In this document: positions 1-1,487 of the stretch, one piece after another
Numbering within the stretch: position 1 is the stretch's first letter
Layout of the letters: every line of letters starts with the position of its first letter
NCBI GenBank assembly: GCA_000004985.1
Contig: GG739406.1
DNA: 1,487 bases
Direction: 5' to 3' (one strand)
DNA from: Naegleria gruberi
Lineage: Eukaryota
Notes under the pieces: generated by a model
Told to the model about the DNA's origin: nothing
The model's input: the letters and a program-made list of their open reading frames with translations, nothing else
The model's database searches: none
Position numbers and translations under genes: made by a program

Positions 1-717
1 CACGTGATTATGAGTCAATCTTCCAGATTCAATTCCAATAGCAATTAGCAAATCCAAATTATCATGAAATGCCAATCCAATTGACATTGCTCTCATACTT
101 CCCCCACAACCTCCTCCTCTAGAATCATAATTCAATGAATCCCACTTATTCTTCCTTGTTTGTTTGATATAATTGATGGAATCTCTGCATTTCTTTCCTG
201 GAGATCTATCTCCCATATCTTTCCAACATGCAACATATTCCTGAACCATCACAACCATAATCTTATCAACCAATTCCATAAATCCTTCATCTTTGAATCC
301 AATTGAAAGCTTTGGTGTGAGAATTTGATTCAAATCTTTGTGAGTCAGTGTTTTTAGAGTTGCCAAATGAAAGATCGTATCATCAGATACTTTCCATGAC
401 TTAGTATCGATATTTGCAATCTTTCCTCCAAATTCATCTTTTAATTCCTTATGAATTCTCTCTCCGGAGAAGTTAAACTCCCACGTTCCATTCCTATATC
501 CAATTGCATCACCAACAGCAGTCAATACACAACTAGCTTCAATTCTCTCCGCTAAGGAAGGTAATGAATCTTTATTAATCTTCCTATCCAGCAAATTATT
601 TACAGTAGCTCTATCGCAGATTGATTGATCACCATTTGATACATTTGATGAAGCTGTAGAAAACAATTGATCACCATTTGATGGTGAGCGAGGATCCTTG
701 TGTACTTGTTGAGACAT
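1..717 (-). CDS. ADP-ribosylarginine hydrolase, ARH1/ADPRH-like (ADP-ribosylglycohydrolase family). Partial: the N-terminal 239 codons are present and the ORF continues beyond position 1.
   Basis: Manual reverse-complement translation from the ATG at 717-715 gives a stop-free 239-codon frame to the window edge: MSQQVHKDPRSPSNGDQLFSTASSNVSNGDQSICDRATVNNLLDRKINKDSLPSLAERIEASCVLTAVGDAIGYRNGTWEFNFSGERIHKELKDEFGGKIANIDTKSWKVSDDTIFHLATLKTLTHKDLNQILTPKLSIGFKDEGFMELVDKIMVVMVQEYVACWKDMGDRSPGKKCRDSINYIKQTRKNKWDSLNYDSRGGGCGGSMRAMSIGLAFHDNLDLLIAIGIESGRLTHNHV... From residue ~58 onward it is colinear with vertebrate ARH1 as I recall it (VLSAVGDALGYYNGKWEF ... WRVSDDTVMHLATAEAL ... YQDCMEDMDGRAPG ... EGGCGAAMRAMCIGLRF ... 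LIQVSIESGRMTHHHPTG). An in-frame TGA lies 3 codons upstream of the ATG (724-726 on the minus strand), so the frame is closed 5' of this ATG. The start context is A-rich (gaaaaaaATGtct). The ORF is missing from the supplied track because it has no stop within the window. Confidence 0.85.
   Translation of the reverse strand, partial: MSQQVHKDPRSPSNGDQLFSTASSNVSNGDQSICDRATVNNLLDRKINKDSLPSLAERIEASCVLTAVGDAIGYRNGTWEFNFSGERIHKELKDEFGGKIANIDTKSWKVSDDTIFHLATLKTLTHKDLNQILTPKLSIGFKDEGFMELVDKIMVVMVQEYVACWKDMGDRSPGKKCRDSINYIKQTRKNKWDSLNYDSRGGGCGGSMRAMSIGLAFHDNLDLLIAIGIESGRLTHNHV
624..682 (-). repeat. Perfect 17-bp direct repeat attgatcaccatttgat (624-640 and 666-682), 42 bp apart, in-frame within the N-terminal extension of the CDS. 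It encodes SNGDQ twice.
   Basis: Read directly from the sequence. A further catttgat repeat lies at 633-640 and 643-650. The region is low-complexity and slippage-prone. Confidence 0.9.
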
Positions 718-790
718 TTTTTTCAACTTCCCAACCAAATCTGCCAATTTACTGTAAATAAGTTAGATCGCGGGAGGTTGATATAAATTC
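718..790 (-). promoter_or_regulatory. Putative 5'UTR and core promoter of the ARH1-like gene: an A-rich Kozak-like start context and a TATA-like motif (TATAAA on the plus strand at 782-787, TTTATAT on the minus strand) about 65 bp upstream of the ATG.
   Basis: A-rich sequence directly precedes the ATG on the minus strand. TATAAA at 782-787 is the only strong TATA-like motif within 100 bp upstream of the start, and it lies just inside the inverted-repeat-bounded segment. The transcription start is unknown, and this ATG could be preceded by an upstream exon. Confidence 0.2.
743..775. repeat. Left arm of a split inverted repeat: outer 11-mer gccaatttact (743-753), a 9-nt spacer, then inner 13-mer ttagatcgcggga (763-775).
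   Basis: The reverse complement of 1421-1448 reads gccaatttact-tatt-ttagatcgcggga. Both the 11-bp and the 13-bp blocks match the left arm perfectly. The spacers differ (9 nt versus 4 nt). The GC-rich 12-mer stands out in an AT-rich background. Confidence 0.8.
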
Positions 791-820
791 GTCGATCCGC
801 TGGACCAGAAGAAAATTTGC

Positions 821-837
821 AAGTTGAGTGTCAACTT
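821..837. repeat. Hairpin-forming inverted repeat aagttga-gtg-tcaactt (7-bp stem, 3-nt loop).
   Basis: Perfect 7-bp complementary arms, read directly. Immediately followed by an A-rich tandem repeat. Confidence 0.6.
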
Positions 838-838
838 T

Positions 839-862
839 AAAAAATATTCAAAAAAATATTAT
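839..862. repeat. Tandem 12-mer, two copies (aaaaaatattca / aaaaaatattat).
   Basis: 10 of 12 positions are identical in the two adjacent copies. Confidence 0.7.
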
Positions 863-883
863 CAGCCAAACATAACAATGCAG

Positions 884-905
884 TGAAACTACATTGAAAC
901 TACAT
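884..905. repeat. Perfect tandem duplication of the 11-mer tgaaactacat (884-894 and 895-905).
   Basis: Read directly. It is followed by agttttac, which is partially complementary to gaaacta. Confidence 0.85.
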
Positions 906-961
906 AGTTTTACCCATCGAGAAAACTGGCTTTATTTTGCATAACGTGGAATAGTATCATC

Positions 962-973
962 ATTAGTACTAAT
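962..973. repeat. Perfect 12-bp palindrome attagtactaat (centred on gtac).
   Basis: The sequence equals its own reverse complement. Confidence 0.8.
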
Positions 974-1021
974 TTTAGTAGAATTGATGAACAATATGGT
1001 GTTTGGCTAATGCTAATACAC

Positions 1022-1039
1022 CAACAACAACAACAACAA
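1022..1039. repeat. (CAA)6 microsatellite.
   Basis: caacaacaacaacaacaa read directly. The adjacent gctaat is duplicated at 1006-1017. Confidence 0.95.
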
Positions 1040-1420
1040 GAAATAATAGTAATTATATTTGCGGAAGGCTCAAGAATGAATGGTTGCTGTTACCAATATT
1101 GGCTCTGTTCTTGTTGTTGGAGTTTGGTCATCAGTTCTTGATTGGATTATTGTTGGTATTCTGTTGAGTTCCCAAATTTTCACAATAAAAGACTTGTTCA
1201 ATATATTTGTGTTGGTTTCCTGCATGAAATGTTACCTCATTACTCGCAGAGTATTCAAGAGAAGGAATAGAGTGTGGTGTTCTATCTTTGCTTGTGAGCA
1301 AGATTACCGACTTGTAAAAATTTTCAGATACCAAGAAATTTTGGCAAAGTCGAACTGGTATCCAATGGCTGGTATTTTGGACTTGGAAAAAAAATTTTCT
1401 GGCCCATTTTTTCAAAGACT

Positions 1421-1448
1421 TCCCGCGATCTAAAATAAGTAAATTGGC
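1421..1448. repeat. Right arm of the split inverted repeat: tcccgcgatctaa (1421-1433), aata, then agtaaattggc (1438-1448).
   Basis: Perfect reverse complement of the 13-bp and 11-bp blocks of 743-775. A chance 13-bp plus 11-bp inverted match within 1.5 kb is extremely unlikely. Confidence 0.8.
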
Positions 1449-1452
1449 GCCA

Positions 1453-1475
1453 AAACTAATCTGAAGAATTAGTTT
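1453..1475. repeat. Hairpin-forming inverted repeat aaactaat-ctgaaga-attagttt (8-bp stem, 7-nt loop) located 5 bp outside the right arm of the inverted repeat.
   Basis: Perfect 8-bp complementary arms. The stem is AT-rich (one GC pair), so it is thermodynamically weak. Confidence 0.5.
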
Positions 1476-1487
1476 CCTTATAGAGAA

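Follow-up and report, generated by a model that had tools for sequence, protein, structure and literature searches.

An unplaced Naegleria gruberi contig carries the 5' part of a second, most likely allelic copy of an ARH1-type ADP-ribosylhydrolase gene

The metal site and the substrate cleft of ARH1-type ADP-ribosylhydrolases have been described for human ADPRH (ARH1), in which Asp55, Asp56, Asp302 and Asp304 are involved in Mg2+ coordination and catalysis, and Cys129, Tyr263, Ser264, Ser269 and Ser270, together with Gly100 and Gly127, belong to the cleft (PMC7390403). Ala98 and Asp302 of the same enzyme contact the distal ribose (PMC6309922). In human ADPRHL1 (ARH2), the counterparts of the four aspartates are Asp57, Asn58, Glu302 and Ala304, and those of the cleft residues are Phe130, Ser265, Glu266, Arg271, Arg272, Asp100 and Ser128, in the order given above for ADPRH (PMC7390403). 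These positions provide the frame in which the locus reported here can be compared with the described enzymes.

The window, that is, the whole stretch of 1,487 bases that was analysed (approximately 35% G+C), makes up the whole of one small contig in the published assembly of N. gruberi. In our preferred reading, to which we assign a probability of about 0.85, this unplaced contig carries a second copy, 97% identical and most likely allelic, of a gene whose product would work like human ARH1. The locus is an ordinary partial copy of an already known gene: the fragment is deposited as NAEGRDRAFT_54990 (partial hypothetical protein, XP_002668041.1, 238 aa, 100% identical to the window ORF), and its full-length twin has been named ARH1 automatically. 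The features of the coding part are as follows.

1..717, minus strand: partial coding sequence, codons 1-239, of an ARH1-type ADP-ribosylhydrolase (NAEGRDRAFT_54990), open to the contig edge
763..765, minus strand: in-frame TAA, 15 codons 5' of the ATG, which closes the frame
553..717, minus strand: N-terminal extension, aa 1-55, rich in Ser, Asn and Asp
496..513, minus strand: GDAIGY, aa 69-74, with Asp70 as the equivalent of human ARH1 Asp15, invariant across the alignment
376..387, minus strand: S111-D112-D113-T114, corresponding to human Ser54-Asp55-Asp56-Thr57, the predicted N-terminal Mg2+-coordinating Asp pair, invariant in the alignment
268..306, minus strand: 13-residue insertion relative to animal ARH1, SIGFKDEGFMELV, aa 138-150
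196..207, minus strand: R171-S172-P173-G174, corresponding to human Arg97-Ala98-Pro99-Gly100; Gly100 is kept and Ala98 is replaced by Ser
85..117, minus strand: GGGCGGSMRAM, aa 201-211, with Gly202 and Cys204 at the places of human Gly127 and Cys129

The reading frame starts with the ATG at 717-715 and runs for 239 codons to base 1 without a stop in the window. The original prediction had described it as a minus-strand frame lacking an in-window stop and missing from the ORF track, which the translation confirms; it was left out of the ORF list since it continues past the sequence end. Counted from the TAA at 763-765, the stop-free run in this frame reaches 254 codons. Among 5,000 simulated first-order Markov sequences of the composition of the window, the longest stop-free run in any frame had a mean of 87 codons and an sd of 19; the maximum was 205 codons, so no simulation attained 239, and the coding signal is therefore real and beyond what chance would produce. 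The G+C content of the frame is lower at the third codon position (27%) than at the first (42%), which fits a gene in an AT-rich genome. As the next Met after the ATG at 717 is found only at aa 147, this ATG is the sole start able to yield a complete domain.

The predicted product belongs to a well-populated family. The Pfam profile PF03747 (ADP_ribosyl_GH), run as proposed on the 239-aa translation, matches with E=5.1e-22 and 79.3 bits, where the gathering score is 26.2, which at the level of sequence confirms the ORF as a member of the ADP-ribosylglycohydrolase superfamily; the match spans residues 65-238 of the ORF and positions 5-157 of the 287 in the profile, which make up the N-terminal half of the domain. 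Its best relatives of solved structure are the human ARH1 entries 3HFW, 6G28 and 6IUX (E~3e-32), followed by a marginal match to MJ1187 (E=0.0098), and neither ARH3 nor DraG matched the window fragment at E<=0.01 among solved structures. The named database relatives of the ORF are ARH1/ADPRH as well. Judged by matches to solved ARH1 with E values from 1e-32 to 1e-75, the predicted fold is fixed. The expectation that the frame would align with ARH1 along its whole length holds for approximately aa 56-238, which correspond to residues 2-165 of the human protein, and fails for aa 1-55, which have no counterpart in human ARH1 or in the Naegleria lovaniensis orthologue.

The full-length twin is NAEGRDRAFT_33467 (XP_002677468.1; UniRef D2VF74, 'ADP-ribosylhydrolase ARH1'), a protein of 429 aa encoded on a 424,055-bp scaffold, and it is the second member of the 90%-identity cluster of NAEGRDRAFT_54990. 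By BLASTP, 233 of 239 residues of the window ORF are identical to it (97%). The only differences are Val5/Ala, an extra KDPR in the window copy (aa 7-10, a 12-nt indel) and Ser107/Thr, all three of which keep the reading frame. Val239 of the window is Val235 of NAEGRDRAFT_33467, which goes on from ...THNHV into VGFMG... and whose C-terminal part includes ...SYSFSGWAGSSGDD... and ...HGGDSDTTGAIA.... The part missing from the contig had been put at two thirds of the protein; taken from NAEGRDRAFT_33467, it amounts to 194 of 429 residues (45%). Searching with the C-terminus of the N. lovaniensis orthologue gave no match named as N. gruberi among those listed, and a metagenome scan for close Naegleria loci yielded distant relatives only (44-67% identity).

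The orthologue in N. lovaniensis is C9374_006740, which is 66% identical over the conserved core. Its deposited model matched 39% of the query only, because the start given in it is an internal ATG, which leaves out 73 residues of the N-terminus. The true gene was delineated on the corresponding 9-kb locus (L001) by mapping the window protein with tblastn and reading the DNA, with the following result.

L001, 3733 to 3850: exon 1 of the N. lovaniensis gene, starting with the ATG at 3733
L001, 3851-3899: GT..AG intron of 49 nt
L001, to 4252: exon 2
L001, 4253-4298: GT..AG intron of 46 nt

The N. gruberi window lacks both introns, its frame continuing uninterrupted at aa 85 and at aa 207/208. 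The reconstructed N. lovaniensis protein has 408 aa and matches human ARH1 with E=8.6e-75 over residues 2-348. A Dpy-30 gene ends approximately 40 nt before its ATG. The practical point here is that the deposited model of the N. lovaniensis gene lacks its N-terminal part. Since the N. lovaniensis protein has only approximately 10 residues before the conserved core, the 55-residue extension is specific to the N. gruberi lineage. This extension contains V5A and the KDPR indel, two of the three changes that separate the N. gruberi copies, which suggests that it is weakly constrained. The 13-residue insertion, for its part, is present at the matching place in N. lovaniensis.

Naegleria is described as being, for the most part, heterozygous and diploid (PMC9928731). 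As the short contig differs from NAEGRDRAFT_33467 by few in-frame changes, an alternative haplotype is the simplest explanation in such an organism. The contig is thus most likely an alternative haplotype of the NAEGRDRAFT_33467 gene or a recent duplicate of it, the former being favoured, and we infer that the two copies are allelic rather than paralogous. The contig would then carry the promoter-proximal flank and the first 239 codons, and break off inside the gene; indels in the 5' region and the flank may have caused the allele to be assembled separately.

The features of the flank are the following.

718..1487, no strand assigned: upstream flank, 34% G+C, no supported gene
743..778, plus strand: left arm of an inverted repeat, with the shared blocks GCCAATTTACT and TTAGATCGCGGGA, ending 25 nt 5' of the ATG
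1418..1448, minus strand: right arm of the inverted repeat, ending 39 nt short of the contig's right end

No tRNA was detected in a scan of the window, and an Rfam scan of it returned a single sub-threshold match (18.6 bits against 55.2). The ARH1 frame had been called the only strong coding signal in the window, and this view stands, the 770-bp flank being devoid of a convincing gene. An ORF of 117 aa at 1080-1433 on the plus strand was considered as a gene and rejected: it has no Pfam match at E below 0.05 and no match among 1.84 billion representative proteins, and its size lies within approximately 1.6 sd of the longest chance ORF, which is compatible with chance. The antisense ORF of 94 aa that overlaps it has no Pfam match at E below 0.05 either. 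The sole non-random feature of the flank is the inverted repeat, an exact 12-mer of which occurs twice in inverted orientation where none would be expected. Its motif is absent from L001, even with up to 2 mismatches allowed, and a 16-mer of it gave two single matches in a viral collection, which is chance level. The repeat might represent a promoter motif common to divergent genes, the termini of a small mobile element, or something of another kind.

Alternatively, the contig might be a recent segmental duplicate of NAEGRDRAFT_33467, possibly truncated or decaying, in another genomic context. This would accommodate the 12-nt indel and the two substitutions, and the flank might be read in the same way: positions 718-1487 show no DNA or translated similarity to L001, including the sequence that lies upstream of the orthologue there, and the inverted repeat, with its arms of 31-36 nt, could mark a small mobile element. 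However, loss of synteny relative to another species is uninformative on two copies inside N. gruberi, and this reading sits poorly with three frame-preserving differences, 233 identical residues of 239 and no stop in 239 codons. As divergent haplotype contigs are to be expected from a heterozygous diploid, we regard the duplicate as rather unlikely.

The half of the active site that is visible in the window is of the ARH1 type. The motifs quoted in the original prediction, GDAIGY (aa 69-74), WKVSDDT (aa 108-114) and GGGCGGSMRAM (aa 201-211), are all found in the translation. At eight of the nine sites checked (D15, S54, D55, D56, T57, G100, G127 and C129, human numbering) the window has the ARH1 residue, and at the ninth, Ala98, it has Ser, as does Paratrimastix. 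A substitution at the Asp or Thr sites was looked for as evidence against the prediction; Asp55, Asp56 and Thr57 are all retained. Asp302 and Asp304, two of the four catalytic aspartates, lie past base 1 of this copy together with the adenosine and ribose cleft. In NAEGRDRAFT_33467, Ser264, Ser269, Ser270, Asp302 and Asp304 are kept, and Tyr263 is replaced by Phe, as in the ARH1 proteins of Latimeria and Asterias; N. lovaniensis has His at this position and also retains Asp302 and Asp304 in its C-terminal part. The catalytic competence of the window copy, predicted from approximately 55% of the protein, is supported by these full-length relatives.

By analogy with the human enzyme, two Mg2+ ions would be held by Asp112 and Asp113 and by the C-terminal pair equivalent to human Asp302 and Asp304, a pair that the full-length copy has. 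With the distal ribose of ADP-ribose positioned by these ions, the glycosidic link with the acceptor, which is arginine in mammals, would be cleaved by hydrolysis. Both the catalytic activity and the specificity for arginine are thus presumed for Naegleria on the model of ARH1. It is conceivable, if not what we expect, that the protein is an active enzyme with a physiological substrate other than ADP-ribosyl-arginine. Candidates for such a substrate are O-acetyl-ADP-ribose, alpha-NAD+, ADP-ribose on serine or on nucleic acid, and adducts made by toxins from bacterial prey. Specificity is set by cleft residues that are variable among ARH1-type proteins, and positions 263, 264 and 269 differ widely among protist and invertebrate homologues; Naegleria itself has Phe for Tyr263 and Ser for Ala98, as well as its own 13-residue insertion, and the arginine-specific writers (ARTCs) have been described for vertebrates (PMC6309922). 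Nevertheless, the overall similarity of the protein to ARH1 is far above that to ARH3 or DraG, and Ser264, Ser269 and Ser270 of the ARH1 cleft are kept in NAEGRDRAFT_33467. A different substrate is the less likely reading, yet one to be taken seriously, far more so than a loss of activity.

The distinction between an active ARH1 and an inactive ARH2 was drawn from a site table in which ARH2 proteins were aligned with vertebrate, invertebrate and protist ARH1, the human ARH1 being taken from the PDB alignment. A human ADPRHL1 sequence served as bait only, for retrieving genuine ARH2 proteins. The top match to this bait was a gibbon protein, 99% identical, and all 120 species-named ARH2 matches among those listed are from vertebrates, from sharks to mammals. 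All ARH2 proteins examined have Asp or Glu at position 100, Ser at 127, Phe or His at 129, Arg-Arg at 269-270, Glu at 302, and Ala, Gly or Ser at 304. None of the ARH2-state residues of the table is found in the window ORF or in NAEGRDRAFT_33467. The motif differences with ARH2 that had been given in the original prediction were compared in this way with both the published residues (PMC7390403) and real ARH2 sequences, and the window is of the ARH1 type at each. In the GGGCGG motif, Gly127 and Cys129 are kept in the window, and ARH2 has Ser and Phe or His instead. The Asp pair fared less well: the window has SDDT and mammalian ARH2 has Asn at Asp56, but the ARH2 protein of Mustelus keeps SDDT, and in those of Latimeria, Xenopus and Danio the region reads SGDT, SNNT and SDGA, respectively. 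On the aligned proteins, positions 100, 127 and 129 are better discriminators within the window than the Asp pair, which alone is unfit for telling an active ARH1 from an inactive ARH2.

Whole-sequence comparisons point in the same direction. By BLASTP, the window ORF scores 117-135 bits against animal ARH1 (35-41% identity) and 68-84 bits against ARH2 (26-33%). Neighbour joining on the N-terminal half places the window ORF with NAEGRDRAFT_33467, and this pair next to N. lovaniensis (100% bootstrap at each step), and it sets ARH2 apart as a clade of its own, likewise at 100%. Together, the cleft residues and the whole-sequence scores support a probably active ARH1-type protein rather than a pseudo-enzyme. 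That it is a pseudo-enzyme like vertebrate ARH2 (ADPRHL1), using the ARH fold for binding without catalysis, is very improbable: although only half of the active site is visible in the window and the Asp pair is insufficient for excluding such a protein, given the SDDT of Mustelus ARH2, the window has the ARH1 residues at Gly100, Gly127 and Cys129, unlike every ARH2 examined, the full-length copy, 97% identical, has Asp302, Asp304, Ser269 and Ser270, the ARH2 matches listed with a species name are all vertebrate, and ARH1 proteins give the window higher scores than ARH2 proteins do.

ARH1-type proteins with an intact active-site signature are found in Heterolobosea, Amoebozoa, Preaxostyla and many invertebrates, which makes Naegleria a possible model for the role of ARH1 beyond animals. 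It is tempting to speculate that Naegleria keeps a fully active, arginine-specific ARH1, with two diverged copies in N. gruberi and a second paralogue lineage in N. lovaniensis and Willaertia; this broader picture is possible, and we hold it only tentatively. If it were true, it would imply an endogenous cycle of arginine ADP-ribosylation and de-ADP-ribosylation, or a means of countering ADP-ribosylating toxins from bacterial prey. Such a function would lie well outside the vertebrate ARTC/ARH1 system where it has been defined, in a free-living heterolobosean far from animals. For the contig itself, the significance is mostly one of bookkeeping.

Among the described systems, ARH3 (ADPRHL2) and bacterial DraG are the more distant: they likewise belong to the PF03747 superfamily and have a binuclear Mg2+ or Mn2+ site, and against the full-length N. 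lovaniensis orthologue ARH3 gives E values of approximately 5e-6 to 1e-3 over approximately 60 residues, and DraG 4e-8. Vertebrate ARH2/ADPRHL1, a cardiac pseudo-enzyme, has the fold family in common with the Naegleria protein, is of similar length and shares GDAxGY and Ser54 with the window; some ARH2 proteins retain one or both of the aspartates. Within the genus, the N. lovaniensis orthologue keeps SDDT, GGGCGG and DSDTT and has the insertion in common with N. gruberi, and NAEGRDRAFT_33467 shares the N-terminal extension, the Naegleria insertion and all active-site residues of the window. Human ARH1 differs from the N. gruberi proteins in lacking the 55-aa N-terminal extension and the 13-aa insertion, and in having Ala98 where Naegleria has Ser and Tyr263 where the full-length N. 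gruberi copy has Phe.

The flank upstream of the ARH1-type gene carries an inverted repeat whose GC-rich arms stand out from the surrounding AT-rich sequence:

Window 743-778 and 1418-1448: inverted repeat made up of two conserved blocks, GCCAATTTACT and TTAGATCGCGGGA.

An exact 12-mer of this repeat occurs twice in the window, against approximately zero occurrences expected. The arm at 743-778 stops 25 nt ahead of the ATG, and the one at 1418-1448 stops 39 nt short of the contig end. The repeat could represent a shared promoter motif, or its arms could be the ends of a MITE; it was not found in the orthologous N. lovaniensis locus, L001. The flank also contains a (CAA)n-like tract and its imperfect, TTG-rich inverted complement (window 1018-1042 and 1106-1124, with some 65-70 nt between them), both of which are low-complexity sequence. 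These tracts, together with a T-rich strand bias (37% T and 16% C at 1080-1433), explain why both strands of the flank contain long but spurious ORFs. At 1225-1268 on the minus strand, Rfam gives a sub-threshold match with a domain of a plastid ycf3 group II intron; it is almost certainly due to chance, with 18.6 bits (E=0.18) for a gathering score of 55.2.

Within the N-terminal extension of the protein, an exact 17-nt direct repeat, ATTGATCACCATTTGAT, is present at window 624-640 and 666-682 with a spacing of 42 nt. As both copies encode SNGDQ, a small internal duplication is suggested to have enlarged the extension.

Heterolobosea possess a second, more divergent lineage of ARH1-type paralogues, represented by C9374_009936 of N. 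lovaniensis and a Willaertia magna protein (P0025 and P0024, respectively), which are approximately 43-45% identical to the window gene. Full-length P0025 has all four aspartates. No N. gruberi counterpart of this lineage was present among the matches of the searches made. In ARH2, the shark protein (P0201, Mustelus asterias) has kept both N-terminal aspartates in SDDT, whereas they have been lost in different ways in coelacanth (SGDT), frog (SNNT) and zebrafish (SDGA). This suggests that the N-terminal pair decayed independently, and later than the loss of the C-terminal ligands.

The deposited model of the N. lovaniensis orthologue (C9374_006740, P0006; 335 aa) begins at an internal ATG, L001:4001, and lacks 73 residues at the N-terminus, GDAIGY and SDDT among them. 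The true start of the gene is L001:3733 (region L001:3733-4400, PYSW02000028.1). Two short introns interrupt it, the first of which is unannotated:

L001:3851-3899: intron 1, GT..AG, 49 nt; window counterpart 462-464, codon 85.
L001:4253-4298: intron 2, GT..AG, 46 nt; window counterpart 94-96, codon 208.

In P0021, a metagenome-derived Naegleria-like fragment, the residues immediately ahead of 'MRAM' are unrelated, which suggests that the second intron is kept there. Unlike its N. lovaniensis orthologue, the N. gruberi gene has neither intron; the presence of both in N. lovaniensis and, apparently, of the second in P0021 points to intron loss in the N. gruberi lineage.
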